64,000 bases of DNA from a virus (taxonomy: Duplodnaviria; Heunggongvirae; Uroviricota; Caudoviricetes): the IMG/VR virus record IMGVR_UViG_3300037453_000505; one strand, given 5' to 3'. The translations under genes were made by a program, and so were the position numbers. This document shows, piece by piece, positions 1,896 to 50,593 of this stretch (positions are counted from its first letter, which is position 1; each line of letters begins with the position of its first letter). The notes under the pieces were generated by a model. The model ran no database searches. It saw only the letters and a program-made list of their open reading frames with translations, and was not told the DNA's origin.

Positions 1896-3137
1896 ATGAG
1901 AGAGTGAACAGAAAAATTAAAGCCTATTACTCAGGAAGAAATAAAGCCTATTGATTATAAAGAAATCAATGAGAAAATCTGACTGAATAATATTAAAGTT
2001 CATCAAGCTCCTGTTCTCACTATCTCAGCTTGGTGTCATAATCATATCAGAGCATTACATAAAAAGTATCCATCAGAAGAATGGACAGCTATTTGTAAGA
2101 TAGTTAATCATTGAGAAGGACAATTTGAAATGGTTGATATGATACACCCTTGACAAAAAACAACTAGCTGAGATGTAGAAACAACTGATGAATGAATGGA
2201 ATGGGCTATTGACCACTTGTTAGAACGTGGTGAAGATTTGTGAGAATGGAATTGTATTCTACATTCTCATCATCATATGGGTTGTTTCTGGTCTGCAACA
2301 GATGACAATGCTAGACTAGGAATGAACGATTGAAGAATGCTTATGTGGGCTGTGGTGACAGCTTATAAGTGAGAAGAAATAGATTATAAAGGTTGCCTTA
2401 ACTTTTATAAGCCATACCCTATTGAGATAGATTGTGATATAGAATATTACACAGAAGATTTATATTGACAGAGAGAACAATGGGGAGATTTTATAGAGAA
2501 TAGAACAAAAGAAATCTATAATGAAATGGTGTTGACAGATGAAACATTAAAGGAATATAAATGCGAATATGATTATGATAACCTATTAAAATATTTAGGT
2601 ATAGACATAACAGATGAGCTTAAAGTTAATGCTAATGTAGTTCAAATGAAAATGCCCTGCGAGTGATATGAAAATAGGTTGAAAGAAATTATGGAAGAAG
2701 CTAAGGAAAAAGTTCAGGAAGAGGTATGAGCGCCGGTAGATAATGAGCTTGTTGATTGGTCTAATTGGTCTGATAATTTACTAGAACAGTTAGATGAAAA
2801 CAAGAAAAAATCTGAGGTAGTTAAAACAACTAAATATAATTATGACTATACCAATAGCTGGGACGATTATGAATATAATCGTTTTTATAATACTAAGCCA
2901 ACTAAAGTTAGTAATAGAGATTTCTATGATAACCCTGAAGAAAAGTATTGCGAGTTTAGTTCAATAAACTACCCTACTAAGTGGAGTTTAATAAATGCTT
3001 ATGGTTTGAATGAACAGTTTGAATTTAGGTTGAATGCTGAAAAAGAACGAGAGGTCTATAACACCCACTATAAAATCTGGTGCTATGTATGAGATGAGTT
3101 AGAAGATTTATACACATATCCAGAAGATTATTTATAG
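1896..3137 (+). CDS. JAB/MPN (JAMM) metalloprotease; deubiquitinase-like.
   Basis: About 413 aa. It contains ...EWNCILHSHHHMGCFWSATDDNARL..., the JAMM zinc motif H-x-H-x7-S-x2-D. It starts 2 nt after the E1 stop. Confidence 0.7.
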
Positions 3138-10526: not shown

Positions 10527-10624
10527 TCTAATTGGAACGTCGGACGCCAATTTCTAAAGAGTCGACCACAATTGATTTGTGTGATTGTTTTTTATTGCAT
10601 TAGGGGGCTTCGGCTCCTTGATGT

Positions 10625-10715
10625 GGAGAGATGTCAGAGTGGTTGAATGTGGCGACTTGCTAAGTCGTTAACCGGGTGAGAAACCGGTTCGTAGGTTCGA
10701 ATCCTACTCTCTCCG
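10625..10715 (+). tRNA. tRNA-Ser (anticodon GCU), type II with a long variable arm.
   Basis: Cloverleaf folded by hand: acceptor ggagaga/tctctcc, anticodon loop ttGCTaa, long variable arm aaccgggtgagaaaccggttc, T-arm gtagg-ttcgaat-cctac. Confidence 0.75.
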
Positions 10716-10719
10716 AAGA

Positions 10720-10790
10720 TGGGAACTAGCCTAATGGTAGGGCAACAGGCTTTGAACCTGTGTGTCTAGGTTCGACTCCTAGGTTCCCAA
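10720..10790 (+). tRNA. tRNA-Gln (anticodon UUG).
   Basis: Perfect 7-bp acceptor tgggaac/gttccca, anticodon stem acagg/cctgt with loop ctTTGaa, T-arm ctagg-ttcgact-cctag. Confidence 0.75.
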
Positions 10791-10798
10791 AGTTATAT

Positions 10799-10875
10799 GC
10801 GGGTGTGACGTAATTGGTATAGCGTAGCAGACTTCAGCTCTGCCCGTACGGGTTCAAGTCCCGTCGCCCGCTCCA
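10799..10875 (+). tRNA. tRNA-Gly with anticodon UCA, which reads TGA codons.
   Basis: Acceptor gcgggtg/cgcccgc with discriminator U and an encoded CCA. Anticodon stem gcaga/tctgc with loop ctTCAgc. T-arm acggg-ttcaagt-cccgt. The GCGGG acceptor plus U73 are glycine identity elements. Confidence 0.75.
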
Positions 10876-10876
10876 T

Positions 10877-10953
10877 AGGAGATTAGCTCAGATGGTTAGA
10901 GCACTTGTCTGATATGCAAGGTGTCACTGGTTCGATTCCAGTATCTCCTACCA
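10877..10953 (+). tRNA. tRNA-Ile (anticodon GAU).
   Basis: Acceptor aggagat/atctcct, D-arm gctc-agatggtta-gagc, anticodon loop ctGATat, T-arm actgg-ttcgatt-ccagt, encoded CCA. Confidence 0.75.
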
Positions 10954-10956
10954 TAT

Positions 10957-11028
10957 GTACCAGTAGCTCAATGGTAGAGCAGTTGGCTGTTAACCAATTG
11001 GTTATAGGTTCGAGCCCTATCTGGTGCG
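10957..11028 (+). tRNA. tRNA-Asn (anticodon GUU).
   Basis: Acceptor gtaccag/ctggtgc, D-arm gctc-aatggta-gagc, anticodon loop ctGTTaa, T-arm atagg-ttcgagc-cctat. Confidence 0.75.
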
Positions 11029-11035
11029 GGATATT

Positions 11036-11112
11036 GTGAGTGTAGCTCAATTAGTTAGAGCGCTTGTTTGTGGAACAAGAGGTTGGGAGTGCGATTCTCC
11101 TCACTCACCCCA
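11036..11112 (+). tRNA. tRNA-His (anticodon GUG); no G-1 is encoded in the genome.
   Basis: Perfect acceptor gtgagtg/cactcac with discriminator C and an encoded CCA. Anticodon loop ttGTGga. The base at position -1 is T. Confidence 0.7.
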
Positions 11113-11118
11113 ATTTAT

Positions 11119-11189
11119 GGCGGTATCGTTTTATGCAGGTAAGACGGCCTGGTAATGGCAGAAATGTGGTGCAAGTCCCTTTGCCGCCC
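11119..11189 (+). ncRNA. tRNA-sized structured element of unresolved identity; possibly a degenerate or atypical tRNA.
   Basis: A 7-bp terminal stem ggcggta/tgccgcc encloses 57 nt with internal hairpins (gtttta-tgcagg-taagac; gcc-tggtaat-ggc). I could not fold a canonical D/anticodon/T cloverleaf by hand. It sits between tRNA-His and tRNA-Arg. Confidence 0.3.
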
Positions 11190-11193
11190 CTAT

Positions 11194-11267
11194 GTCCCCA
11201 TAGCATAATTGGATAATGCAACAGCCTTCTAAGCTGTGGATTGGTGGTTCGAGCCCACCTGGGGATA
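11194..11267 (+). tRNA. tRNA-Arg (anticodon UCU).
   Basis: Acceptor gtcccca/tggggat, D-arm gcat-aattggata-atgc, anticodon stem acagc/gctgt with loop ctTCTaa, T-arm ggtgg-ttcgagc-ccacc. Confidence 0.75.
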
Positions 11268-11290
11268 ATTTAGATTTAATTATTATAAAA

Positions 11291-13471
11291 ATGAGAACAT
11301 TACTATTATTTAGATGAGCACCTTGATGTGGAAAGTCTACATTTATAAAAGAACATTGATTAGAACCATACACTTTATGTGCAGATACTTTTAGAATGTT
11401 GTATTCTTCTCCTACATTATATGTAAATGGAGAGGTACATATTCCACAAAATGTAAATGGTGTCGCTTGGGATAACTTATTCTCTTGTCTAGAATATAGA
11501 ATGCAAAATGGAGAGTTTACAGTTATCGATGCTACAAATTCTAAAACTGTGGAGATGAATAAATATAAGAAACTAGCTGATGAATATAGATATAGACTTT
11601 ACATTGTCGATATGACAGATATTCCTATCGAAGAAGTAAAGAGAAGGAACAAACTTAGACCAGAATGGAAATGGGTACCAGAAGAAGCTATTGATAATAT
11701 GTACTCTAGATTTTCTACACAAAAAATTCCTAGCTGAATTAAAGTAATCAAACCAGAAGAGGTAAATGATTTATTAAGATGGAGAGCTGTAGAAATTCCA
11801 GACACATATAAAGAGGTAGTACACATAGGAGATATCCATTGATGTTATGAAACATTAATGTCTGCTCTACCTAATGGAATTGAAGAAGATAAATTCTATA
11901 TATTCCTATGAGATTATTATGAAAGAGGTCCAGAAGATGTAAAGACTTTAGACTTTATGGAAAGTATAATAGATTTGCCTAATGTTGTATGTCTAGAATG
12001 AAATCACGAAACTCATTTATGGACTTACGGTATAGGTAAAATCCCTAGAAGTAAACACTTTATGGGATATACTGTGAATGAATTAATCGAATGAGGATGG
12101 GATGCAAAAAGAATGAGAATATTTATGAAGAAATTACTTCAATGTTATTACTATACTTTCAAAGGTAAAACTGTTTTATGTACTCATTGATGAATAAGTA
12201 ATTCTAATTTTGAAGAATTGTTCCCATTAGGGTTAACTTGTCTTGCTACAATAGATTTAATTCATTGAGTAGGTTCTTACAATGATACTTGAGAATGTGA
12301 CAGTAACTTTGCTAAAGGAGATATATTAAGCTGTCACTGACATAGAAATATTGAAGATAAACAAATAGAATGAATAGCTAACCTAGAATGATGAGTTGAA
12401 TGGGGAAAAGAATTAAGAGTTGCTATACTAAATGATAAATTAGAAATAGTTAAATATCCATACAAAGATAGAATACCTTCTAAAGAAGAATTCTTCTGAG
12501 TGAAACAAGATATAACTGTGAAACAATTTATTGAGAGCTTAAGAAAAAATAAGTATATCAATGAAAAAAATGTGCAGTGAAATATAAGTAGCTTTAACTT
12601 TACTAGATGAGCTTTTAGCAGAAGCCATTGGGATAGAGAAACAGTTAAGGCTAGATGATTATTCATTAATACTAATACCTATAAGATAGTTGCTAGAGCT
12701 TATAATAAGTTCTTCAATGTAGATGAACAAAAGAGCACAATGCTATTTAGTATAGGACAAAATGCTCACTTCCCTATCGTTGGGTATAAGAAATATAATG
12801 GGTATTTGTGAATAATTTGATACGATGAAGAAAGTGATGAGTTAGTATTCACAAGTAAATCTGAAGTGGGTTGACCTCACGCTCAACGACTTAAAGAAAT
12901 AGTTATAGAGAAAGGTATAGACTTAGATAAGGTAAAAGACTATTTAAAAGAAAACTTTTGTTCATTAGTCTTTGAGGTAATTGACCCTGTGAATGATGCA
13001 CATATTATTAAGTATACTGAAAGAGATGTAATTCTATTAGATTGTGTAAAGAATACTATTAACTTTGAGAAACTAGATTATAATAGTCTATTAAAGTTAG
13101 GAGAAATACTTTGATTCACAGTGAAAGAAAAGTTAGTAGAGTTAAAAGATATGGTGGAGCTAAGAGAATGTATAGATGAATTACTTAATCCTAATTCAGA
13201 ATACAATACTTGAACTCCTATTGAATGAATGGTATTTGTTGACAAAGATGACTTTATGTTTAAGCAGAAATGAGAATACTATCAGCAATGGAAAAAACTT
13301 AGAGCTTTGATATGAGTAGTAGCAAGATGACAAAACTTTACTCATACTTGAATGTTGACAAATCCAGAGATGAATGAGTTCTATTGATGGTTAAAGGAAC
13401 AGGCTTTAACTTGAGAAGAAAACATTATAGAGCTTAGAGATAAGTTCTATACTAACAAAGCTATGATTAGC
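11291..13471 (+). CDS. Trifunctional Pnkp-like RNA end-healing and sealing enzyme with kinase, metallophosphoesterase and ligase domains.
   Basis: About 727 aa under code 25. The N-terminus carries a P-loop, LLLFRGAPGCGKST, with the first Gly encoded by TGA, and VIDATN, which is kinase-like (compare T4 Pnk). The middle region has GDIHGCYETL...FLGDYYERGPEDVKTL...CLEGNHE, the calcineurin-like phosphoesterase motifs GDxHG / GDxxDRG / GNHE. The C-terminus has ligase motifs I (KYNGYLG), III (SLVFEVIDP), IV (EGMVFVDK) and V (FMFKQKGEYY). This is the domain order of bacterial Pnkp. Confidence 0.7.
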
Positions 13472-13604
13472 TAACATAGGGAGTCGTCCACCTAGGCACG
13501 GACGGATAATGTGGGGTATCACACTGTAAATATTGGCTTTAGTATTAGTAATGCGAAGTACAAACATTATGAGTAGTAAGGTTGATATGATATATCTCCC
13601 CTTT

Positions 13605-13677
13605 GGCGGGGAAGTCCAACGGTAGTGGCGTTGTCGGCTATAGACAAAGGTTGTTGGTTCGAATCCAACACCCGCCG
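13605..13677 (+). tRNA. tRNA with a CUA-type anticodon loop (ggCTAta, which would read TAG). The loop has an atypical G32-G33, so the identity is uncertain.
   Basis: Acceptor ggcgggg/acccgcc (6 of 7 pairs). D-arm gtc-aacggtag-ggc. Anticodon stem ttgtc/gacaa with loop ggctata. T-arm gttgg-ttcgaat-ccaac. No CCA is encoded. Confidence 0.45.
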
Positions 13678-13771
13678 AGGAGGAGTTTGAAAAATGTGTA
13701 AAATATGTATCAAAATAACTTGAAAAATGTGTAAAATGTATGCTATTTTATATTGAAAAATGTGGGACAGA

Positions 13772-14879: not shown

Positions 14880-14902
14880 CTTAATTATATTACTATGGAT
14901 AT
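14868..14902 (+). promoter_or_regulatory. Conserved AT-rich upstream motif; copy 2 of 3.
   Basis: aataattttatttcttaattatattact directly before an ATG. Confidence 0.45.
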
Positions 14903-15154
14903 AGGATGAATTGTATTATTGTGTCTTCTAGTAGGAGTAGTTGCATTTGTAATAGGGGCAATAGTTACAGCCGAGGGTTTAAAGAACTTATTTTGTAGGC
15001 ACGATTGGGAAGAAGTTTACAAAGCTAATAGTTACCAAAAAGAAGGAGATATAGAGAAAGGACTAACTAATTGAGTTGACATTGGGTTTGTTTGTAAAAA
15101 ATGTAAAGCAGTAAAAAGAAGCTCGGTAACATTCTACCCAATAGAAGATAGATA
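14903..15154 (+). CDS. Small membrane protein with a C-terminal CxxC...CxxC zinc ribbon.
   Basis: MDIGGIVLLCLLVGVVAFVIGAIVTAEGLKNLFCRHDWEEV...GFVCKKCKAVKRSSVTFYPIEDR. Confidence 0.45.
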
Positions 15155-15180
15155 ATTTTATTTCTTAATTATATCACTAT
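15153..15180 (+). promoter_or_regulatory. Conserved AT-rich upstream motif; copy 3 of 3.
   Basis: ataattttatttcttaattatatcact directly before an ATG. Confidence 0.45.
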
Positions 15181-15366: not shown

Positions 15367-16152
15367 ATGAAAAGTTTTGTTTGGAGTATTGTTATACTCT
15401 TGTTAGTAATCTGTGGTTTTAACTCTTGGTTTGTAGTTGAGCCAGGTTATAATTGATTTACTGTTACCTTGGGTAAAGTAAATAGTACCGTTTATACAGA
15501 TGGATTACATTTTAAAACTCCTTTTATTACTAAGTCTGTAAAGTATAACATTCAGACACAAAAGTTAGATGCTGTAGCAGATGCAAGTAGTAAAGACTTA
15601 CAGAGTGTAGCCGCTGCAATTGTAGTTAACTACAAATTCAAAGAAGATGAGGTAGTTAAACTTTATAAGAATGTAGGTAAAGAAGATAAAGTAGCAGAAA
15701 AGATTATCACTCCTGCTATTCAAGAAGTGTTTAAAGCAGTTGTTGCTAAATATTCAGCAGAGCAATTGATTACTGAAAGAAGTGATGTGTCTAAAAACAT
15801 TGAAGAAGCATTGAATAAAAGACTTGAACCATATGGAGTTCAAATTCAACTATTTAATATCGTAAACTTTAACTTTAGTAAATCATTTAACGATGCAATT
15901 GAAGCTAAGGTAACTGCTGAACAGAATGCTCTTGCTGAGAAGAATAAGCTAGAGAAGGTTAAGTATGAAGCTGACCAAAAAGTTGTAGCCGCTGAAGCTC
16001 AAGCTAAGGCTATTGAAATTCAAGCTAAAGCTATTCAGAACCAATGAGGTGAAGAATATGTAAAGCTTAAATGGATTGAAAGATGGGACGGTAAACTACC
16101 TGTAACTATTGCCTGAGAAGATACTTCTTTTATTATGATGATGGATAAATAA
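15367..16152 (+). CDS. SPFH/band-7 (prohibitin-, stomatin- or HflC-like) membrane protein.
   Basis: N-terminal TM segment (MKSFVWSIVILLLVICGF). The core ...TVYTDGLHFKTPFITKSVKYNIQTQKLD...ITPAIQEVFKAVVAKYSAEQLITERSDVSKNIEEALNKRLEPYGVQIQLFNIVNFNFSKSFNDAIEAKVTAEQNALAEKNKLEKVKYEADQK... is SPFH-like with a coiled-coil tail. The ORF-track fragment 15469..16047 is the central part. Confidence 0.6.
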
Positions 16153-16600: not shown

Positions 16601-16674
16601 AGGTACGTGGTGTAATGGTAGCACAGGAGCCTCCAAAACTCTTAGATTAGGTTCAATTCCTAGCGTACTTGCCA
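16601..16674 (+). tRNA. tRNA-Trp (anticodon CCA).
   Basis: Acceptor aggtacg/cgtactt (one G-U pair) with discriminator G and an encoded CCA. D-arm gtgt-aatggta-gcac. Anticodon loop ctCCAaa. T-arm ttagg-ttcaatt-cctag. Confidence 0.65.
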
Positions 16675-16697: not shown

Positions 16698-17672
16698 ATG
16701 AAAGTATTATCCCTATTCGATTGAATAGCTTGTGGGTATGAAGCTTTAAATAGAGCTTGAATACCTATCGAAGTTTACTATGCTAGTGAAATTGATAAGC
16801 ACGCAATTAAGGTAGCGACCACAAACCATCCAGACATTATTGAAATTGGTGATGTGTGTGAAGTAAAATGAGAAGACTATCAATGAGTTGACCTAGTTAT
16901 AGGTTGAAGTCCTTGTCAATGATTTAGTATGGCGGGTAAGATGTTAAACTTTAACGACCCCAGGAGTAAGCTATTCTTTGAATTCGTTAGATTAGTTAAA
17001 GAAGTAAAACCTAAATACTTTCTCTTAGAAAATGTGAAGATGAAGAAAGACTTTATCAATATCATTAATGAGCAATTATGGGGAATAACTCCTATAGAAA
17101 TTAATTCTGCTTTAGTGAGTGCTCAAAATAGAAAGAGATTATATTGGGTTGGTAAACTTCAAGAAGATGGGACTTATACTAAGGTAGAAATACCCCAACC
17201 AGAAGATAAATGAATTACATTGAAAGATATTCTACAAGAAGATGTAGATGAAAAATATATTTTAACACAAAAACAAGTTGATATGATTGCTAATTGGGGA
17301 TGATTTGAAGACCCAATCGCTAGTATCAAATGACCAGATGATAAGATGTGAACTCTCACTACACACTGTGGCAAGATGTCTAATGGGATTAAACTAATTA
17401 GATGAAGACCTATAATGCCATATGAACCAGGGCATAGAAGATTAAAATACACAACTTATATAGATAAATGTCCTACTCTTACTACAACTTGTGCTAGTGG
17501 AGACCAAAAGAATGTGGTATTAAATGGAGATGTAATTAGAAAATTGACACCTATAGAATGCGAGAGATTACAAACATTGCCAGACAATTATACTTCTGCC
17601 GCAAGTGACACACAAAGATATATCCAACTTTGAAATGGCTGGACGTGCGATATAATAGCACACATATTTAGT
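16698..17672 (+). CDS. DNA (cytosine-5)-methyltransferase.
   Basis: Motif I LFDGIACG (FxGxG). Motif IV GGSPCQGFS (PCQ, with the first G encoded by TGA). An ENV motif is present. AQNRKRLYWVG is QxRxR-like. The C-terminal PIECERLQTLPDNYT matches the conserved end of C5-MTases. About 324 aa under code 25. Confidence 0.75.
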
Positions 17673-17689
17673 TACTTAAAGTAGCAAAG

Positions 17690-37618: not shown

Positions 37619-37790
37619 TAATGGAATAATAATTATTATAAAATTACTTTACTGCAACATCTGAAACTATGGTTCAATTACTTCATCAACTTGAACTACT
37701 ACTAGAACTTGACGTAGACCTTCTTCAAGGGATATATTTTATTCAAGTTACTCATCACCATAGATTTCAGTTATTTGAGCTTTCTCGGCC

Positions 37791-39239
37791 TCTATTGGTT
37801 CTGATAAATGTATCAGATGAATAATAATTTCAAGGTCAATAATTACTTGCATCTACTTGTGTTGTACTTTGATTTGCTATTGTTCAAGTTCGTGGAAATC
37901 AATAGTTATTTCATCGTTGATAATACTTACCACAATTAGCCTCACTTAATGTATCTCCACTATTCCATACTGTAGTAGCTCACAAGTTTTTATCTGCTAT
38001 TGTTACCCAAGTTTGTCAGTCGCTACTTAAACTTATAAGTCAGTCTGTGCTACTCCAAAATATTCATCAGCTTTCTATACTTGTTCAATATAGTTTAGTC
38101 CAAGATGATGTAGGCACAGTTGGGGAATTCTTGAAACAACGGACAGAGAAAACGTAAGAACGGTAGTCGCTATTCTGGGGATTAAGAGCAGTCGAACTGA
38201 AGTATAGGTAGTAGGAGCGATTTGCATCGCTACGAGAAGAAGACCAATAGTACCCGCGGGTACCCTGACCGTCGATATTAGTAGTCAAGGGGTAACGTCT
38301 ACCAGCGAAAGGCAACTTCAACGCTATTCCAAAGTTAGTTCAATCAGAACTTCATCCACCTAAAGCTGTCCATATATCATATACAGCTTGCCACTCTGTA
38401 TTAAGTGGTACGTGAAACCCACTTGGACAAGGTCCCCTCATAGCAGAATAGTCCTTATAAGCGTGGAAAGTTCAAATCGCTCAATGAAGCTTCATATCAG
38501 GAGTTCCCCAAGTTCATTGGGTTACTCATCACCAAAGGTTATCATTTTGAACGGTACTCCAATCATAACTTCAAGTTCCTCTGAATGTATCACCCTCATA
38601 ATAATTTCAAGGTCAATAATTTGAAGCATCTACTCTAAAAGAAGTAGCAGGGATATTTCAACTATGTGCAAATCACAAATTATTACCTCGTTGATAAAAA
38701 TTACCACAGTTAGCATCTGTTAATGTATCTCATTGGTTATATACAGTTGTAGCTCATAGGTTTTTATCTTGTATCGTTATGGGATTTGTTCATACAGTTC
38801 AAGGAGAAATTGTTATAAGTCATAAAGCCTGATTTCGCCAAATTCACGTTTGTCAAATTCAAGGATTATATATTCTAGTCCAACTACTATCTGGTATTAC
38901 AGGCGCATCCTTGAAACAACGGATGGTAAACCCTGTAGAACGGTAGTTGCTCCACAGAGGGTCGATGCTAGACGAATTGAAGCCTAAACTATAGGCATAA
39001 TTAGCATTGTTCGGAGTAGAAGACCAGTAACCACCACGAGACCCCGCGCTGCTAACATTGCCGTCACTGTAGCTACGATATCCAGCCATAGGCATCTTTA
39101 AGTAAGTCCCCATAGTTGTGGCGTTCTGTGCCATTGAAAATGTAGAAGTAAGTATCCCACACAAAGCTGACCATTCACTCTGAAGTGGCACGTGAAACCC
39201 ATCTGGAGCTGGACCTTGTGTATCAAAATGTATTGCCAT
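37791..39239 (-). CDS. FISUMP (Fibrobacter succinogenes major paralogous domain, lectin-like) repeat protein of about 483 aa.
   Basis: ORF-track fragments 38859..39239 and 38085..38321 are joined by TGA=Gly into one frame, with a checked length of 1449 nt. It contains ...PAPDGFHVPLQSEW...GGYWSSTP...GFTIRCFKD, then ...ITIQDKNLGATTVYNQGDTLTDANCGNFYQRGNNLGF...CPSGFHVPLNTEW...GYYWSSS...SVRCFKN, then ...VTIADKNLGATTVWNSGD...CGKYYQRGNNYGFP... These are the FISUMP hallmarks IGNQxWMAENL, YGxLYNW, CPxGWHxPSxxEW, GYYWSST and GFSVRC. Confidence 0.65.
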
Positions 39240-42196: not shown

Positions 42197-42262
42197 AAGA
42201 ATTATTAATTTCAAAATAAATATAGAGCCTACATAGAATTTTCTATATAGGCTCATCTTTTT

Positions 42263-44991
42263 TAATATGTCATATATGCAACGTTCTCATCATAGCTAGT
42301 TAATGCAGCATATTCTGCTTCAGTACCTACCCAGATTTGACTTATAGATGTAGTTGTTCAAGTTGTATTAGATGTGATAGCTCAACCTCATCATCCACCA
42401 CCTCATCATTCAGGTTGTAATTCAAGGTTACCTCATATAGCAAGGAAAACAAACTGGTCAATTCCATCTGCCGTAAGGGTTGTATCTGTTTCATAAGGGT
42501 TAGTCACATTTGTTCAAAGTGTCATTTCATATGCAGTACTTCAATTCTCAACTCTTAATATGTAAGTCTGTCAATCCTTAATTGTAGCTGGAGCATTTAC
42601 TGTAAAGTTCGCACTTGGAGTATATGTTGAAGCTAAGTCAAGAGTAATTGTTGCTCAAGTCTTTGCTTGCCATCAGAAATCACTATAAGACATATCTCAT
42701 CCTCAAGCTTGTGCTACAGCATCGTCTACATATTTCTTAGTAGCTGGACTTCAATCATATTCTGGAGTATAAGGCGAAGAATAATCTTGTCAAGTAGCTA
42801 AGAAATATCAAAGTGCTTGAGTTGATGTACTTACTGCAGAAACTGTTTTAGAACTTCAACTTCAAGTTAACGTAAATACTATACTTATATGATATATTCT
42901 ACTTCTATTACCTGTACCAGTCACATCTCAAGTAGCATAAGCTCTTAAAAATGTAGCTTTACTAGAAGATACCGAATATAATGTATATATATTATTACCA
43001 TAATCCAAAACTGGTGTTTTTCAAGCTTTATACCAATCATAAGCTGCGATAGCATTTGTTAAATCTGATGTGCTAGCTATTGAAAATACCTTAACATTAG
43101 TAGCATCAGCTTTCCCTGATATAGTTGTATCCATTGCAGATATCTTATCATATACAGCATTCTTAGAAGGAGCTTCAGTTGTTACTCAATCCCAGCTAGA
43201 ACCGTAAGCTGTATCTGAAACTTGACTTGGATAACTTATATTTACCTCTGTAATTCCTGTTACTTGACCTAAAGTGTTCGTTGTTATCTGTGGAACTTTT
43301 GTAGCAGAACCTTTTGAAGTATATGCTGTTTGTGCAGTTAAAGCATCTTGCTTTCAACCGATAGTCGTATCCATAGCATTAATCTTATCATACACAGCAT
43401 TCTTTGAAGGGGCGTGAGTTGTATCAGCATCCCATCCGCTTCAATATGCCGCATCAGATATTGCACTTGTTCATAACTTACCATTGAAAGTTTGCCAATC
43501 TGCACTACTTAAATATCAATCATTACTAGATGTAGCAGCTCAAAGTTTAGTTTGAATTGTTGTCTTAGTTTCGTCTCAAGTATTTGTGTTACTTGTGTTA
43601 GAAAGTTTTGTCCTTTCTGCAGAAGTAAGGAATAAATTAGTAGAACCTTGAGTAATAGCATCACTTGTTTGAGTAGATGTATTAAAATAATTAGTTAAAT
43701 CTACAGAAGTTTCTCATATCATTACCCAAGTATTATTTGAGTAGATATATTCTTCGTATTTATCTTGTCCACTTCAAACAGGTCAAAGCAAATATATTAT
43801 TGTTGTTTTAATATCTGTAGTAGGCAATGTAGCTACAACTTTAAATCAAGCAAAGTTTGCTACATAATCAGCTACTTCTTGTTTTGTGTATGTTTCACTT
43901 TTTGTATAATAATTTGTTAAGTCGCTTACAGCCTTAGTAATATATCCAGCATCATTAGTTAATGTAGATACATTATCTAAAGGTTGAACTGCAGAATTAG
44001 CTTTAGTTCTAATAGAACCCAAATCTGATATAGTATCTTGCTTTCAAGCTATCGTTGTATCCATAGCAGATATCTTATCATAGACAGCGTTCTTTGAAGG
44101 AGCTATACCTGTTATTCAATCCCAACTAGCGGCATAAGCATCATCTGAAACTGCTCATTGTGTAGCAGCAGATATATTATCGTCTACATATTTCTTTGTA
44201 GCAGGACTACCTGCATAAACAGGTGTATATGGAGTTGAGTAATCTGTAAGCGTGTCTAGATAACTTCCAGCTCAATTTCAACTTCCATAATTTATTCTAT
44301 TAACAGTTCAATTATTTGTTAGTATAAATATTTTATCAAGACTTAATGAACTAGCATCGCCCATTCCATTATCCAAACTCCTTAATCAAGGGAAGATGAA
44401 AGAAATTCAATTAGTAGAATATGTTCAAGAAAAAATATATAGTCATTTTCTTTCAACTGGGTCAGATGGAGTATAATATACTAATGGGTTCTTACCTGCA
44501 TCATACCAATCATAAATATCTTGTGCTGTAGTTAAATCTGATGTTCAATTTAGATAGAAAGTTTTTGTATCGCTTTCTGGGATGGTAACAGCTCAAGTGT
44601 CTCAGTTTACAGAAGTAACTCAACTATTACTAATAGTCATATTACCACTACCAAACGTTAACCCTATTCAAGTACCTGCCACTGCTTTAGCTGCAGTATT
44701 TCTTACAACTACAGACCAAGTTCAGTTAGAATTTAGTTTATAAACATAAACTTCGTCTAATTGATTAGCTGCGCTATTATGGTCGCTTCTACTTCTATAA
44801 TATTGAAATTCAACTTCAGTAGGAGTTGTGGCATCATTTACATATGCCATAAATGCTAGTCTAGTTTGACTTCACGTAGCAGGATTAGAATTAGAAGAAG
44901 CTCTACAATAAACTACTCCATTCTTATTATAAGCAGTTATGAAATCATTCCAAGTCGAACTACCATAAGAAAGAATAACCATATCATCCTG
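42263..44991 (-). CDS. Large tail-fibre protein C (about 909 aa) with three internal about 35-aa repeats of the motif SWD-x3-APSKNAVYDKI-x-AMDTTI-x-GK-x-DA.
   Basis: N-terminus MVILSYGSSTWNDFITAYNKNGVVYCRASSNSN... Repeats ...AYAASWDGITGIAPSKNAVYDKISAMDTTIAGKQD..., ...AAYGSGWDADTTHAPSKNAVYDKINAMDTTIGGKQDA..., and ...TAYGSSWDGVTTEAPSKNAVYDKISAMDTTISGKADA... The C-terminal module ...PSANFTVNAPATIKDGQTYILRVENGSTAYEMTL... is shared with gene B. The start may lie upstream at a non-ATG codon. Confidence 0.5.
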
Positions 44992-45087
44992 TTTAGCATC
45001 CAAGGCATTTTTCAAGTCTGTTTGGTCTGCTAATGTTCAAGAAATATTTCACCATTCTGCACTTGTTTGTGTATTAGAAATTACATT

Positions 45088-47453
45088 ATTAGCGTCAATA
45101 CTAATTCAAGTACCTGCTGTATAAGTTGTATCTGTAGATGAGATTATAAAATTACATCATTGTCATTGACTTACTCATCATCGAAGATTGTTGTTTGATG
45201 TGCTTGACCAATCCCAATCTGAATCTCCATAGCTCCTTGTTATGAATGTACTTGAACTATAATAATTTCAAGGTCAATAATTTGAAGCATCTACTTGCGT
45301 TGAAGAAGTTGTTATAGTTCAACTATGTGGGAATCAATAATTATTTCCCCGTTGATAGAAGTATCAACTATTAGCATCACTTACCTCATCTCAGCTATTC
45401 CATACTTGTGTCGCTCATAAGTTCTTATCTTGTATTGTATACCAAGCAACTCCGTCACCACTTATTGAAATTAATCCATCTATTGTATTATGGAATATTC
45501 AAGCACCTGCTGCTACTGAACTTCAATCATATAATGTTGTCCAACTATTATCTGGAAGAACAGGAGTGTTTTTAAAACAACGTATAGATGCTGCATTAGA
45601 ACGAGCTATACTTGTAACTCTTGCTGAACCACTACCAGCTGAAATACAGTAAGCATCATAAGAATCTGATGCTGTCGATGCCCAATAATATCAATATCAT
45701 TGACTAGAGACACTACCGTCCGTCATTCAACGCAAACCAGCAAGAGTCATTTTTAAATAGTCTCTCAAAGTTGTATGGTAAGAAGGCAAAGATAATGTAG
45801 TGAATAATATTAAAAGTAACGCATCCCACTCATCTTTAGTAGGTACGTGAAATCCACTAGGTGCGGGTCATTGTGTATCCCATCCACATCTTTCTTCAAT
45901 AGTGATATTATCTCCTGCAGTAAGTTCACCCTGCTTAGCATCTAAAGCATTCTTTAAATCTGTTTGGTCTGCTAATGTACCTATAATATTTCACCATTCT
46001 GCACTTGTCTGTGTATTTGAAATTACATTATTATTTGAAATTGATATTCCAGGTCAGGCTGTATATGTTGTATCTGTAGAGCTAATAGTCTTTCAATCTG
46101 CAGCGATTTGAATATTTGTTCAAGCTATTAATTCATCTTGTTTTCAGCTCCAAGTAGTTCTAAGCCCTGTGCTATCAGCTAAGTCTTTTATATCAAAGTC
46201 ACCTGCTACATAAGTTGTATCTGTAGCAGAGATTGTTTTTCAATCTGCCGCAATTTGAATATTTGTTCAAGCTATTAATGTATCTTGCTTTGTATTGTCG
46301 TGATAAGCATCTGTTATATATCAAGCATCATTAGTTAATTCACTAATATTATCATTAGGCTGAATAGCTGTATCAGCTAAAGTACCTTGTGTTGCTGTAG
46401 CAAATTCACTTACATCGTGAGTAACTATATCTCAATAAGTTGCTATTGTATCAGAAGCTGATTTACCCGCAGAAGCGTTACTTCTAATAGTAGATAAATC
46501 TGATATAGCATCTTGTTTTCAATTAAAGGTTGACCAATCTGTTGAAGTTAGGTAACCATCGTTAGAAGATGAAGCTGCTCAAAGTTTTGTCTTTATTGTA
46601 GCATTAGTTTCATCTCAAGTATTTGTTCAAGTTGTGTTTCATAATTTAGTTCTTTCTGCTGATGTTAGGAATAAGTTTGTTACTCATTCTGTAATGTCAT
46701 CTGCAGTTCAAGTTAGCTGACTTAAGCTATCTCAAGGTTGAATAGATGTAGCTCATAAAGCTGCGCCACTTCTAATGGTTGCTAAGTCAAAAATTGTATC
46801 TTGTTTTGTTGTTAATGCTTGTGTGATTACTCTGTTTTCTACAGGGTTAGTACTTACTGAAGACATAGCCGTATCAATAGCTATAGGTCTTTCTGTATTA
46901 ATAAGTAATAACCATTGAGTTCAATCATACGTATAAAAGTCTCAAACCTTTACAGTTTGTTGCTCAACTACAGTAGAAGCTAATCAAGCAGTATATTCGC
47001 TACCATCTGGACGATAGTTAGTTCATCATTGAGCAGCGACTACACTTACTACATAGTAATCTCAAGCACGATATTGATATGGGTTATCTACAGGATTAGT
47101 CATAGGTAATCAAGTAGTACAGTTCCAGTTAGAAAGATATCTTCATCTAGAACCTGCGTTCTGTATATATTCATACAAAACCTTTCATTGCTTTGCGGAT
47201 AGAGCATCTGTAGTAGAAGTCGAATATAAGTTATCCTCTACTCAAGGTACAGATATATCAACAGCCTTATTCTCGTCTGGAGTTAATGCTTCTCAATTAA
47301 CTTTTACAGTTTCAATTACATTAACCTGAGCTCAAGCTTCTATACTATTGATTTTCTCCATAACACTATCTTCTATGGCGAACTCCTTTTTCTCCTTCTG
47401 TATAGAGGTTTCATCTGCAAAATATTGTTGACGTGCTTTTGGCATCAATCATT
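45088..47453 (-). CDS. Large tail-fibre protein A (about 788 aa) with an N-terminal STSTTDALSAKQGK fibre motif, internal repeats and a C-terminal FISUMP lectin-like domain.
   Basis: N-terminus MPKARQQYFADETSIQKEKKEFAIEDSVMEKINSIEAGAQVNVIETVKVNGEALTPDENKAVDISVPGVEDNLYSTSTTDALSAKQGKVLYEY... The C-terminus contains ...PAPSGFHVP... and ...YTIQDKNLGATQVWNSGDEVSDANSGYFYQRGNNYGFP... An in-frame stop follows at about 45088. Confidence 0.45.
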
Positions 47454-47574
47454 TAGTTAAATATTTAAATAGTATCTATATTTAGATTATATTTTTCTTG
47501 CGTTTATCTATAACAAAATAGCCACACCTATACATTAAGTATAGATGTGACTAAAATGTATTTTAATAATAATC

Positions 47575-47920
47575 ATATATTGTACCTCAAATACTTCATT
47601 GACTTCAAGGAATCCATACTTTTAAGACATCTCACGCTGATGCTGTATATGGTCATAAAAAATATTCATCGTGATAAGTTCAAGAAGTGAAATAATAATT
47701 AAACATCTCTACATCATTTAATGATAGAGCATATCAGTGCATACTTCATACTTTTACAAATCAAAGTCATCTGAATGTATATGTAGTAGGTCAAGAAAAA
47801 TTTGTCGTATGTACAGTTCAATATTCTTTACAAGCTTTTGCGAAAGCTCACATTGAGGCTCACGAAACTGATATATTTTTTATAATGCTAGTATCTACTG
47901 AAATAGCATCACTCACTATT
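47575..47920 (-). CDS. Small Gly/Tyr-rich protein between tail-fibre genes B and A; possible fibre chaperone or assembly factor.
   Basis: MGAFAKACKEYGTVHTTNFSGPTTYTFRGLGFVKVGSMHGYALSLNDVEMFNYYFTSGTYHDEYFLGPYTASAGDVLKVWIPGSQGSIGGTIYDYY. Coordinates approximate. Confidence 0.25.
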
Positions 47921-47997
47921 CAAGTTATCTCTCACCAAAGATTATTATTATTTGAACTATCCCAACCAGATGGGCTGGTTGTTCTAATTATAAATGT

Positions 47998-50564
47998 GCT
48001 ATTATCATAATAATTTCAAGGTCAATAACTAGAAGCATCTACTTGTGTAGACGAAGTAGTTACAGTTCAAGTTCGTGGAAATCAATAGTTATTTCATCGC
48101 TGATAATATTTACCACAATTAGCTTCACTTAATGTATTTCAATTATTATATACCGTAGTAGCTCATAAGTTTTTATCGGCAATAGTTATCCAATTATTAC
48201 CATCACTAGATATAGAAATAATTCATAATGATGGGCTATGATATATTCAAGAATTTCAGCTGCCCTGATATAATACTGTCCAATTACTATTTGGACTTAT
48301 TGATATATCTTTAAATGGACGAATTGAATTTGCATCTGAACGCCTACTGAATTGAGTAGGGTTTACAATATCCCCGAATTCAATATTATAAGCAAACTCT
48401 TCACCAGCGTGTGTGGATGACCAATAATATCCAACGTGTTCTTGATTAAACTCGTGAGAATCTTCATACCAACGACTTCCTGCAAACGGTATTTTTAAAT
48501 AAGTTTTAAAATCGCTTCATCAATTAGAATTCCAAGCTCATAAACTTACTCACATATCATATAAAGTTACCCACTCATCTTTAGAGGGTATATGGAATCC
48601 ATCATCACAAGGTCATTGCATAGCTGAATAATCGTCTCATATTATTATTCACTTTCAAGCATTATAACTTGTTGCTTCTGGGTCTCCTGGTTGTAACTCT
48701 AAATTTCAGCCCACGGCTAGAAATACAAACTGGTCAATACCGTTTTCAGTTAATGTTAAATCTTCGTTATAAGGATTAGTTATATTTGTTCAGAGTGTCA
48801 TTGTATAAACTATTGCTCAATTTGTCACCCTTAATATATATCTCTGTCAATCCTTTATAGAAGATGGAGCATTGATAGTAAAATTCGCAGACGGAGTTAT
48901 TGAAGTAGATAAATCTAGAGTAACTGTAGCTCAAGATTTATTCTGGAAATTGAAATCATTATATTTCATATCTCCATCTCAAACAATTTCCCAACTATCT
49001 CAATCCCATACCTTTAATATATTATTAGTTGTATCATACCAAAGCTGTCAAGTAACTGGATTAGAAGGAGCTGTAGTTCAAGATGTTATAGCGTTTTTAA
49101 CTTTATCATCTACATATTTCTTTGTCGTAGGACTTCAGTCATAAGCTGGAGTATATGTAGGTCAATAGGCACTATAGTTTACATCTGTACTAAGGAATTT
49201 TACTAGCTTTTGATTTTCATATGTGATACTTGTAACTACATCACTAGAGTAGTTTAAATCTAATCTAGTATTATGTATTTGTGTATCTCAATCTGCACTC
49301 ATTACAGAATATCCTGTATAAGCTTCATAGAATGATAATTTATCTCAATTAAGATGTGAATCTGAAGTGAGATGAAAGTTTGTTGTCTCATCTGTTCAGA
49401 ATACAATTATAGGATTATTTCAAGCTTTCCAATAATCATACGCCGCCTGTGCCTGAGCTAAGTCTGTAGCATCAGCCTGTGAAGCAGACTTTATGTAGAA
49501 AGCTTTTACATTTGTATAAGTATCCACAGGAGTCCAACTTGTTCAATTATATATTTTTAATATATGATTAGTTGTATCGTACCACAATTGTCATTCTGTT
49601 GGATTTTGTGGAGCTGCGCTTCAAGAAGAAATAGTATCTCATATACTATCATCAACATATTGTTTATTAGCTATAACTGTAGTATCTACAGAAAATTCAC
49701 CAGAACTAAGATTTAATCAATATCAAGCTGTATATGTAGTATCTGTATCTATAATATCCCAACTTGTTCAGTTATATACTTTTAATAAATCATTAGTTGT
49801 ATCATACCAAAGCATTCATTCTGTCGCAGGAGAAGGGGCTGTAGGTCAAACATATTTACTTCATTCTATTGCGTCATTAATAGCTGAAGCAACTTCTCCT
49901 GCAGTTTGATACCCTATGTTATTTGTTAATTCTGTGATATTATCTCAAGGTTGAATAGATGTAGCTCATAAAGCTGCACCTGCCCTAATAGTAGATAAAT
50001 CAAGAATATTATCTTGTTTTGTAGTAAGAGCTAAATAAACAGCTCTATTCTCTACGGCGTTCCTAGATGTAGGAGATAATCCATCGTCTATAATTATTTC
50101 TTTTACTTTATTAACCTGTAGTAACCATTGATTTCAATCATAGATATAGAAATCATTTACATTAACTTCCTCTGTCTCAACAGTCTGACTTGCTACTCAA
50201 GGAGTGTATACACTTCAATGAGGGCGATAATTTAACTGTCAAGTAGGTGCAACTGTAGCAACTATATAATAGTCTCAAGTTGCATATGTATGAGGAGAGT
50301 CTACTGGGTCTGTTACTGGCAATCAAGTAGTACAATCCCAAGAAGATAAATATTTATTTAATCAAGTTATTGCATTTATCTGGTCTTGTAATGCCTTACC
50401 CATATTAGCAGATAAGGCATCAGTTGTAGACGTTGAATTAATGTTGTCAATAACCCCAGGAATATTGTTAATTTTTTCTTCAATTTCCTGGGTTAATTTA
50501 TTGACACGCTTTTCCTTATCTGTATACACTCAATCTCAATTATATATTAATCTTGCGTCTGCCA
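47998..50564 (-). CDS. Large tail-fibre protein B (about 855 aa); paralogue of A (N-terminus) and C (C-terminal module), ending in a FISUMP-like region.
   Basis: N-terminus MADARLIYNWDWVYTDKEKRVNKLTQEIEEKINNIPGVIDNINSTSTTDALSANMGKALQDQINAIT... The internal ...PSANFTINAPSSIKDGQIYILRVTNGAIVYTMTL... matches gene C. The FISUMP C-half (PDGFH..., GYW...) and module lie at about 48005..48640. The stop, TTA on the + strand, is at 47998..48000. Confidence 0.45.
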
Positions 50565-50593
50565 TATTGTGTATTTAGATTAAGGAATAAAAA

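Follow-up and report, generated by a model that had tools for sequence, protein, structure and literature searches.

A kinase-phosphatase-ligase fusion beside a tRNA array in a genetic code 25 tailed phage, a predicted Hen1-independent RNA repair enzyme

Phage T4 Pnkp and Rnl1 form a tRNA-Lys repair pathway that counters the anticodon nuclease PrrC. What sets one RNA ligase clade apart from another is the set of modules attached to the nucleotidyltransferase (NTase) core: CthPnkpC with Hen1N makes up Rnl4, and Rnl6 consists of Trl1-LIG and a helical C-domain of its own (PMC6379707). The ligase of C. thermocellum Pnkp (CthPnkp) adenylylates itself, and sealing needs the N-terminal half of Hen1 on its helical insert (PMC3675462). 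Here we describe a kinase-phosphatase-ligase fusion gene in IMG/VR virus record IMGVR_UViG_3300037453_000505, a tailed-phage stretch of 64,000 nt (the window). The gene is read in genetic code 25 and lies directly after a tRNA array. The 727-aa product combines healing domains of the bacterial Pnkp type with a ligase closest to fungal Trl1, and is probably a self-sufficient RNA heal-and-seal enzyme that works independently of Hen1, with tRNAs as its most likely substrates. Residue numbers refer to the code-25 translation.

Domains and closest relatives

A preliminary description of the gene reported a trifunctional enzyme in the domain order of bacterial Pnkp, and its coordinates are exact (Table 1). 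Pfam matches all three domains on one chain in the order kinase-phosphatase-ligase, and the catalytic residues of each do not vary among 29 family members with identities as low as 45%. The motifs it listed are all present when TGA is read as glycine. They are GAPGCGKST (9-17), VIDATN (78-83), GDIHG (180-184), GDYYERG (207-213) and GNHE (237-240) in the healing half, and KYNGYLG (501-507), SLVFEVIDP (558-566), EGMVFVDK (645-652) and FKQKG (657-661) in the ligase.

The kinase is matched by Pfam AAA_33 at residues 4-142 (7.8e-15) and aligns by sequence with C. thermocellum Pnk (CthPnk; 4gp6, 4jst). Residues D32 and R35 align with the CthPnk general base Asp38 and with Arg41. D80 of VIDATN and lid arginines R119 and R123 are also present, and together with the P-loop lysine and serine these give the residue set of the bacterial Pnk clade. 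The phosphatase is matched by Pfam Metallophos at residues 176-355 (4.7e-18) and has active-site residues D181, H183, D208, R212, N238, H239, H299 and H351. By sequence, the best solved-structure match of this segment is the CthPnkp phosphatase 4j6o, in an alignment that covers the equivalents of Asp233, Arg237, Asn263, His264 and His323, whose roles have been described (PMC3675462). With Asp187, His189 and His376, the residues that mark a Pnkp-type metallophosphoesterase all have equivalents. The best structural matches for kinase and phosphatase alike are C. thermocellum Pnkp structures; in fold the phosphatase is matched by PP1, PP2A, PP5 and lambda phosphatase as well. The preliminary description had staked its assignment on these motifs aligning with Pnkp or T4 Pnk, and they do.

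The ligase belongs to a different class from that of bacterial Pnkp. Pfam RNA_lig_T4_1 (PF09511) matches residues 453-664 over the full profile (1-227 of 227, 9.8e-36), which is Rnl1/Trl1-type and not Rnl4. The domain classifies as a ligase rather than as some other nucleotidyltransferase. Motifs I, III, IV and V of the covalent lysine nucleotidyltransferases are present and invariant in the family, with catalytic residues K501 (motif I, KYNG), E562 (motif III), H571, E645-G646 (motif IV), and K658 and K660 (motif V). The motif I lysine, on which the assignment as a ligase also depended, is in place, since K501 aligns with the lysine of the Trl1 KxNG motif (KANG). Motif IV EGMV aligns with Trl1 EGFV, and motif V KQK with Trl1 KYK. 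Compared by sequence with solved structures, the ligase segment has significant matches to Trl1-type tRNA ligases only (9qw7 at 5e-10; 6n0v, 6n67, 9r3w and 6n0t near 1e-4), and neither T4 Rnl1 nor Pnkp ligase chains are among its matches even at E≤10.

Structural comparison was made on a model of P0037, a standard-code homolog of the same architecture that is 49% identical to the window protein (mean predicted local distance difference test score 91.2, predicted template modelling score 0.70). Foldseek matches the P0037 ligase to fungal Trl1-LIG at E about 1e-17 with a target template modelling (TM) score of 0.66-0.70, and to T4 Rnl1 at E about 1e-14 with a TM score of about 0.55. The superposition on Trl1 has 314 aligned residues; because the Trl1 adenylyltransferase domain has 289, part of the C-terminal module also superimposes. 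An Rnl1-like N-terminal subdomain is found in the ligase. The C-terminal tRNA-specificity domain of T4 Rnl1 is not matched, and the T4 RnlA model TIGR02308 matches weakly in the C-terminal part (42 bits vs a cutoff of 242). Judged by its appended modules and the model, the domain is best assigned as an Rnl1/Rnl6-type adenylyltransferase, closest to Trl1-LIG. In Trl1 the requirement for a 2'-PO4 end is enforced by a His227-Arg334-Arg337 triad (CthLIG numbering; PMC11404444). Invariant H571 (E562+9) stands at the His227 position, Q665 at the Arg334 position, which differs between family members, and K668, an invariant lysine, at the Arg337 position. With the triad present in part only, the ligase is not a strict Rnl6 member.

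Table 1. Coordinates of the fusion gene, its domains and the nearby tRNA genes in the window
Feature	Position	Strand	Details
Kinase-phosphatase-ligase fusion gene	11291..13471	+	727 codons; ATG at 11291, TAA at 13472-13474
5'-OH polynucleotide kinase domain	11291..11740	+	residues about 1-150; P-loop G9-T17 (K15, S16)
Binuclear metallophosphoesterase domain (predicted 2',3'-phosphatase / cyclic phosphodiesterase)	11816..12415	+	residues about 176-375
ATP-dependent RNA ligase adenylyltransferase (Rnl1-like N-subdomain and NTase core)	12473..13282	+	residues about 395-664
C-terminal all-helical module after motif V	13283..13471	+	residues 665-727; Q665 and K668 at the Trl1 RxxR 2'-PO4 ligand positions
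Seven-tRNA array: Ser-GCU, Gln-UUG, Gly-UCA (called 'SeC'), Ile-GAU, Asn-GUU, His-GUG, Arg-UCU	10624..11268	+	ARAGORN; Rfam tRNA 52-69 bits each
tRNA-Gly(UCA), decoder of recoded UGA	10799..10875	+	ARAGORN 'SeC'; G1-C72, C2-G71, G3-C70, U73
tRNA-like gene, ninth	13605..13677	+	131 nt past the fusion stop; Rfam RF00005 31.6 bits (gathering 29), E 6.2e-5
tRNA-Trp(CCA), eighth tRNA	16601-16674	+	ARAGORN; directly upstream of a C5-cytosine DNA methylase gene (16698-17684)

The name bacterial Pnkp fits the healing half alone. NCBIfam TIGR04075, the bacterial Pnkp equivalog, matches over profile positions 10-325 of 851 with 78.5 bits vs a cutoff of 750. The matched part is kinase and phosphatase only, and the ligase part (positions 326-851) is unmatched. 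No NCBIfam model reaches its own cutoff on the 727-aa protein, and the helical insert that binds Hen1-N and the unique C-terminal helical module of Rnl4-type ligases were not found in its ligase. Pfam or PHROGs was used to search for Hen1 in 50 of the 79 code-25 open reading frames (ORFs) of the window. The scan took in every ORF of at least 180 aa save two giant fibre-like proteins (42262-47445 and 47563-50565) and one low-complexity ORF; ORFs under 110 aa lay outside it. No Hen1, Tpt1/KptA, RtcB or 2H phosphoesterase is present among these 50 proteins, so no adjacent co-oriented hen1 gene was found, and the sole methyltransferase is a C5 DNA methylase at about 16698-17684. These results agree with the preliminary description, which saw no Hen1-like gene nearby and a C5-cytosine DNA methyltransferase as the only methyltransferase. 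The absence is no anomaly but is expected, because dependence on Hen1 belongs to the Rnl4 module, which the fusion lacks.

The fusion shares with bacterial Pnkp the order kinase, binuclear metallophosphoesterase, ligase, and the Pnkp kinase and phosphatase are the closest solved relatives of its first two domains. It differs in carrying a PF09511 Rnl1/Trl1-type ligase in place of Rnl4, in having no nearby Hen1 gene and no expected 2'-O-methylation of the junction, and in length (727 aa against the 851 positions of the TIGR04075 profile). In the Pnkp1-Rnl-Hen1 complex (4xrp) the ligase is a separate protein and Hen1 is a member of the complex, whereas here the ligase is fused and Hen1 is absent. 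T4 Pnkp and Rnl1 are likewise phage encoded and share the predicted chemistry of 5'-kinase, 2',3'-phosphate removal and ATP-dependent sealing. However, they are two polypeptides rather than one, the T4 phosphatase is a DxDxT acylphosphatase of the haloacid dehalogenase (HAD) type and not a metallophosphoesterase, and the T4 Rnl1 specificity domain has no match in the fusion.

Fungal Trl1 provides the closest solved structure and sequence for the ligase (Trl1-LIG, Rnl6; 6n0t, 9qw7) and is also a trifunctional heal-and-seal enzyme. Its order is reversed, as ligase-kinase-cyclic phosphodiesterase, and its healing domains, a GTP-dependent kinase and a 2H cyclic phosphodiesterase, are unrelated in type. 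No such C-terminal pair is found in the fusion, where the healing domains are N-terminal and match AAA_33 and Metallophos. The RxxR 2'-PO4 ligands of Trl1 are QxxK in the fusion, no Tpt1 partner was found among the 50 scanned proteins, and the fusion is bacterial and viral, in contrast to eukaryal Trl1.

Genetic code and host

The 727-codon frame contains 32 in-frame TGA codons and no TAA or TAG. With the standard bacterial code the longest ORF at 11291-13471 is 113 aa, and ORF calling yields no gene there. If TGA is read as sense, ORFs of at least 100 aa add up to 25,034 aa across the whole window, as against 3,968 aa otherwise. TAG or TAA as sense was rejected, with a maximum ORF of 461-463 aa vs 1,737 aa when TGA is sense. 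When the protein is aligned with 22 distant homologs that use the standard code, glycine fills 411 of the 653 non-gap cells in the 32 TGA columns and tryptophan fills 1, which rules out TGA as tryptophan (code 4); TGG columns in the same alignment are mostly tryptophan. Close relatives have a glycine codon in places where the window carries TGA. Because the TGA columns are mostly glycine in homologs, TGA makes up 58% of glycine codons in the whole window, and a tRNA(UCA) with glycine identity elements is encoded, the element uses genetic code 25 (UGA=Gly). The preliminary description had tacitly read TGA as glycine, and the column test, ORF coverage and codon share all bear out that reading.

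Three active-site motifs are completed by glycine at TGA, with R-stop-AP-stop-CGKST becoming GAPGCGKST, GDIH-stop becoming GDIHG and stop-NHE becoming GNHE. Public protein databases hold the code-25 clade (proteins P0001-P0016) as code-4 translations with tryptophan at every UGA, and the Trp-for-Gly errors fall in the P-loop, GDIHG and GNHE motifs. The window's own protein is among them as P0001, with 32 such errors and a start codon set inside tRNA-Arg. Code-4 translation of this clade therefore corrupts conserved active-site glycines in the public record.

Code 25 is the code of Gracilibacteria and Absconditabacteria, and the host is presumably a member of one of these groups. Phages of these hosts with dense in-frame TGA have already been described (PMC10746230). 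A scan of the GTDB genome set found no close relative of the fusion (best 46% identity).

tRNA genes, family distribution and neighbouring features

Seven tRNA genes end 22 nt upstream of the fusion start codon, which agrees with the tRNA cluster noted at first; the eighth lies downstream (Table 1). The tRNA-Gly(UCA) carries acceptor pairs and a discriminator that we take to be the bacterial glycine identity set, following E. coli glycyl-tRNA synthetase rules. No convincing promoter or terminator was found between the array and the gene, in a scan that performed at background (22 promoter-like sites vs 17.8 expected). The fusion gene appears to be co-transcribed with the array, as judged from spacing only. 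A further tRNA-like gene downstream of the fusion is recovered by ARAGORN at relaxed threshold only. It has anticodon CUA, which reads UAG, a G33 instead of the universal U, and a weak D-arm. Since TAG does not act as sense in the window, it may be a pseudo-tRNA or decoy. Among fetched relatives it occurs in L087 only, which is the same phage from another sample (SRR12681650; 100% identical over 12.9 kb). Between tRNA-His and tRNA-Arg an 80-nt spacer (11113-11192; 52% GC) is GC-rich and has acceptor-like ends; as a tRNA-Tyr it is unsupported by Rfam and by ARAGORN, even relaxed. The first-ATG call for the C5 methylase runs through tRNA-Trp.

The other code-25 relatives share 68-77% protein identity and 75-78% nucleotide identity over the gene. 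tRNAs abut the gene in all of them, and tRNA content turns over. One relative (L085) has Pro, Tyr, Ile and Arg-UCU and then the gene 24 nt on, and another (L088) has Pro, Ile and Arg-UCU and then the gene 31 nt on; both keep the order Ile-GAU, Arg-UCU, gene. In a third (L083) tRNAs flank the gene on both sides. A survey of 86 viral loci, grouped in 16 protein clusters at ≥65% identity, found tRNA adjacency in two clusters. One is the code-25 clade; the second has 24 members and 40-45% GC, and its 7-8 tRNAs begin about 80-130 nt after the fusion stop. Of the 44 loci examined from a bacterial collection, one is also adjacent to tRNAs: in L099 three of them end 83 nt ahead of the gene. L099 is ≤55% identical to anything else fetched. 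The tRNA linkage thus had at least three origins and persists within clades, but it does not characterize the family as such.

The gene is a new code-25-phage member of a large, already sequenced and loosely annotated family, which is a variant of known RNA repair systems. A word-indexed protein search gave 4,852 significant matches, with PF09511 in all of the best 120 and AAA_33 plus Metallophos in nearly all of them. An exhaustive search of 1.84 billion cluster representatives with P0037 as query returned 1,041 of them at E≤1e-30; among the 150 best, nearly all have a length of 700-760 aa and align end to end. At 50% identity the family falls into about 1000 clusters. Related sequences occur on 434 IMG/VR contigs and, in the GTDB species set, at 190 bacterial loci, mostly in Lachnospiraceae and other Clostridia. 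Matches are found in 140 cultured-phage records, 113 of them over ≥80% of the query at 35-38% identity. Carriers include Staphylococcus Twort-like phages (Herelleviridae), Bacillus SPbeta-like phages, Brochothrix A9, and Lactobacillus, Fusobacterium and Acinetobacter phages. Brochothrix A9 gp147, Staphylococcus Twillingate gp176 and the homologs in Bacillus SPbeta-like Goe11 and Goe12 are full-length members of the same family with the same three domains in this identity range. Unlike the window gene they use the standard genetic code, and the A9 and Twillingate homologs have no tRNA genes within 6 kb. Annotation of the homologs is inconsistent, with the labels 'RNA ligase', 'polynucleotide kinase', 'putative serine/threonine protein phosphatase' and 'hypothetical protein' all in use, and a cluster-name look-up gives 'predicted kinase' only. 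In A9 (L001, record positions 93402-98180), gp147 directly follows ribose-phosphate pyrophosphokinase and nicotinamide phosphoribosyltransferase genes. The position after this NAD+ salvage pair suggests a neighbourhood of counter-defence genes.

The window has 32.6% GC and tailed-phage content, including a weak portal match, a holin, an HNH endonuclease, and Ig-like, lectin-like and fibre-like proteins. Just upstream of the next gene (13771), at 13687-13765 (+), are three direct repeats that begin TTGAAAAATGTG; they resemble repeated promoter or operator elements. A small membrane protein gene (14895-15155, +) and, after it, an SPFH/Band_7 gene (15367-16152, +; Pfam 4.4e-34) lie about 2 kb downstream of the fusion. 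A similar pair comes after the homolog in L088, IMG/VR locus L004 and Staphylococcus phage Twillingate, where the labels are 'membrane protein' then 'HflC'. As a family-wide linkage it was rejected, with a flank homolog in only 3 of 86 related loci by tblastn, plus the annotated HflC of Twillingate. A ThiF/E1-like gene (1168-1893, +; Pfam 4.4e-18) adjoins a weak JAB-deubiquitinase-like match (1896-3137, +; E 0.0074), a pair reminiscent of ubiquitin-like conjugation and deconjugation systems in phage-host conflict. Three large tail-fibre-like proteins are encoded on the minus strand at 37644-39239 (531 aa), 42262-47445 (1727 aa) and 47563-50565 (1000 aa). They share repeated 'GFHVP..EW..L ... 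YWSS ... RCFK' blocks and long collagen-like or Gly-rich stretches, and look like modular receptor-binding proteins.

Proposed function and significance

From domain content and neighbourhood we infer the following enzymatic activities, end chemistry and tRNA substrate. The break would come from a ribonuclease that works by transesterification, for example a host anticodon nuclease or ribotoxin, and would have a 2',3'-cyclic phosphate and a 5'-OH as its ends. The central metallophosphoesterase, binuclear and of the Mn2+/Ni2+ type seen in Pnkp and lambda phosphatase, would open and remove the cyclic phosphate to give a 2',3'-diol; CthPnkp-type phosphatases release phosphate from 2'-, 3'- and cyclic ends (PMC3675462). 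The N-terminal P-loop kinase, of the bacterial Pnk type, would phosphorylate the 5'-OH. The C-terminal ligase would then be adenylylated on K501, transfer AMP to the 5'-PO4 and seal the break as a 3'-5' phosphodiester. Because the ligase is not of the Rnl4 type, it would need no Hen1 activator and leave no 2'-O-methyl mark. In function a single chain would thereby equal T4 Pnkp and Rnl1 together. The substrates would be host or phage-encoded tRNAs broken in the anticodon loop. By analogy tRNA is the most probable substrate, because both characterized relatives of the ligase, T4 Rnl1 and Trl1, are tRNA specific (PMC6379707) and the tRNA linkage recurs.

If the protein were instead a canonical bacterial Pnkp, with a Hen1 partner that was lost or is encoded beyond the window, its ligase would adenylylate itself but could not seal. 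Domain order and the CthPnkp-like kinase and phosphatase are what such an enzyme would show, but the partial TIGR04075 score, the full-length PF09511 match, and about 1000 clusters and every examined locus without an obvious Hen1 context make it extremely improbable, and in effect it is already refuted. An enzyme outside RNA repair, whether for DNA-end processing or as a protein Ser/Thr phosphatase with an attached kinase, has hardly any probability. It would accord with the protein phosphatase labels on some homologs and with the PP1, PP2A, PP5 and lambda phosphatase fold matches; yet RNA-repair enzymes are the best matches of all three domains, the domains stay fused in about 1000 clusters, and the ligase falls in RNA ligase clades, not DNA ligase clades. 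Trl1-like chemistry is another alternative, in which the phosphoesterase leaves a 2'-PO4 that the ligase requires and a Tpt1-like enzyme later clears the junction phosphate. The invariant H571 and the lysine K668 at the Arg337 position point that way (PMC11404444). We regard it as very unlikely given the variable Q665 at the Arg334 position, the lack of Tpt1/KptA in the scanned proteins, and a Pnkp-type phosphatase that removes 2'-, 3'- and cyclic phosphates (PMC3675462) in place of a 2H cyclic phosphodiesterase.

General repair of RNA damage is unlikely as well, but less so. On this account the enzyme would repair any RNA that toxins or stress had cut, mRNA and rRNA included, its position would reflect only co-expression in an early or auxiliary region, and the tRNAs would meet the codon demand of a phage rich in AT and UGA. 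In many Clostridia the gene is chromosomal and has no tRNAs nearby, most phage clades lack tRNA adjacency, and the tRNA set fits the most-used codons. Against this, an adjacency of 22-31 nt is kept across relatives of 75-78% nucleotide identity despite tRNA turnover, adjacency arose independently in at least two other lineages, and the closest characterized ligases, T4 Rnl1 and Trl1, are tRNA specific (PMC6379707).

Several observations weigh against a self-sufficient tRNA repair enzyme. tRNA adjacency is absent in 14 of 16 viral clusters and 43 of 44 bacterial loci examined, so a tie to phage tRNA genes does not extend to the whole family; the Acetatifactor muris homolog is a lone chromosomal gene amid ordinary cellular genes. 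The tRNAs decode the codons that the phage uses most (TGA for 58% of Gly, AGA for 66% of Arg, CAA for 72% of Gln, with Asn, His and Trp tRNAs too), and no more than codon supply may be needed to account for the array and where it lies. Structural comparison used the proxy P0037 in place of the window protein. The assumed 2'-OH end chemistry is not certain, because the ligase is closest to Trl1-LIG, which needs a 2'-PO4, and H571 and K668 fill two of the three triad positions. No biochemical study of the family was found in literature searches that did not cover the 2016 RNA repair survey of Burroughs and Aravind, the likeliest catalogue of this architecture. The tRNA-centred counter-defence role that was first suggested is plausible; it gains from an adjacency that is kept in the code-25 clade and recurs in two lineages, and loses by its absence elsewhere and by the fit to codon supply.

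A bolder reading goes beyond the self-sufficient tRNA repair enzyme. In it the family would be the bacterial and viral counterpart of the Trl1 clade (Rnl6), a clade so far discussed as fungal and kinetoplastid. The code-25 unit of tRNA array, ORF and degenerate tRNA(CUA) with G33 would form a co-transcribed tRNA supply-and-repair operon, the enzyme would prefer the phage's own tRNAs, including the UGA-decoding tRNA-Gly, and the tRNA-like RNA would be a decoy or substrate. We consider this combination doubtful.

A phage RNA repair enzyme beside tRNA genes will not surprise specialists, and the fusion is common in cultured phages and Clostridia; its importance is modest. The points of interest are the chimeric Pnkp/Trl1-like architecture, a ligase nearer to fungal tRNA ligase than to T4 Rnl1, and the conserved coupling to a tRNA array. 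A likely mis-filing is corrected, as the protein is not a 'Pnkp without Hen1' but a chimera of Pnkp-type healing and Rnl1/Trl1-type sealing that should work alone. The family is very large and unevenly annotated, and characterizing one cultured-phage homolog would fix the annotation of thousands of genes. The ligase module is the closest non-eukaryotic relative of the fungal tRNA ligase seen in this analysis and bears on the origin of the Trl1 clade. In code-25 phages, the tight and conserved link to an array with a UGA-decoding tRNA-Gly suggests that protection of the tRNA pool matters in these poorly known hosts.

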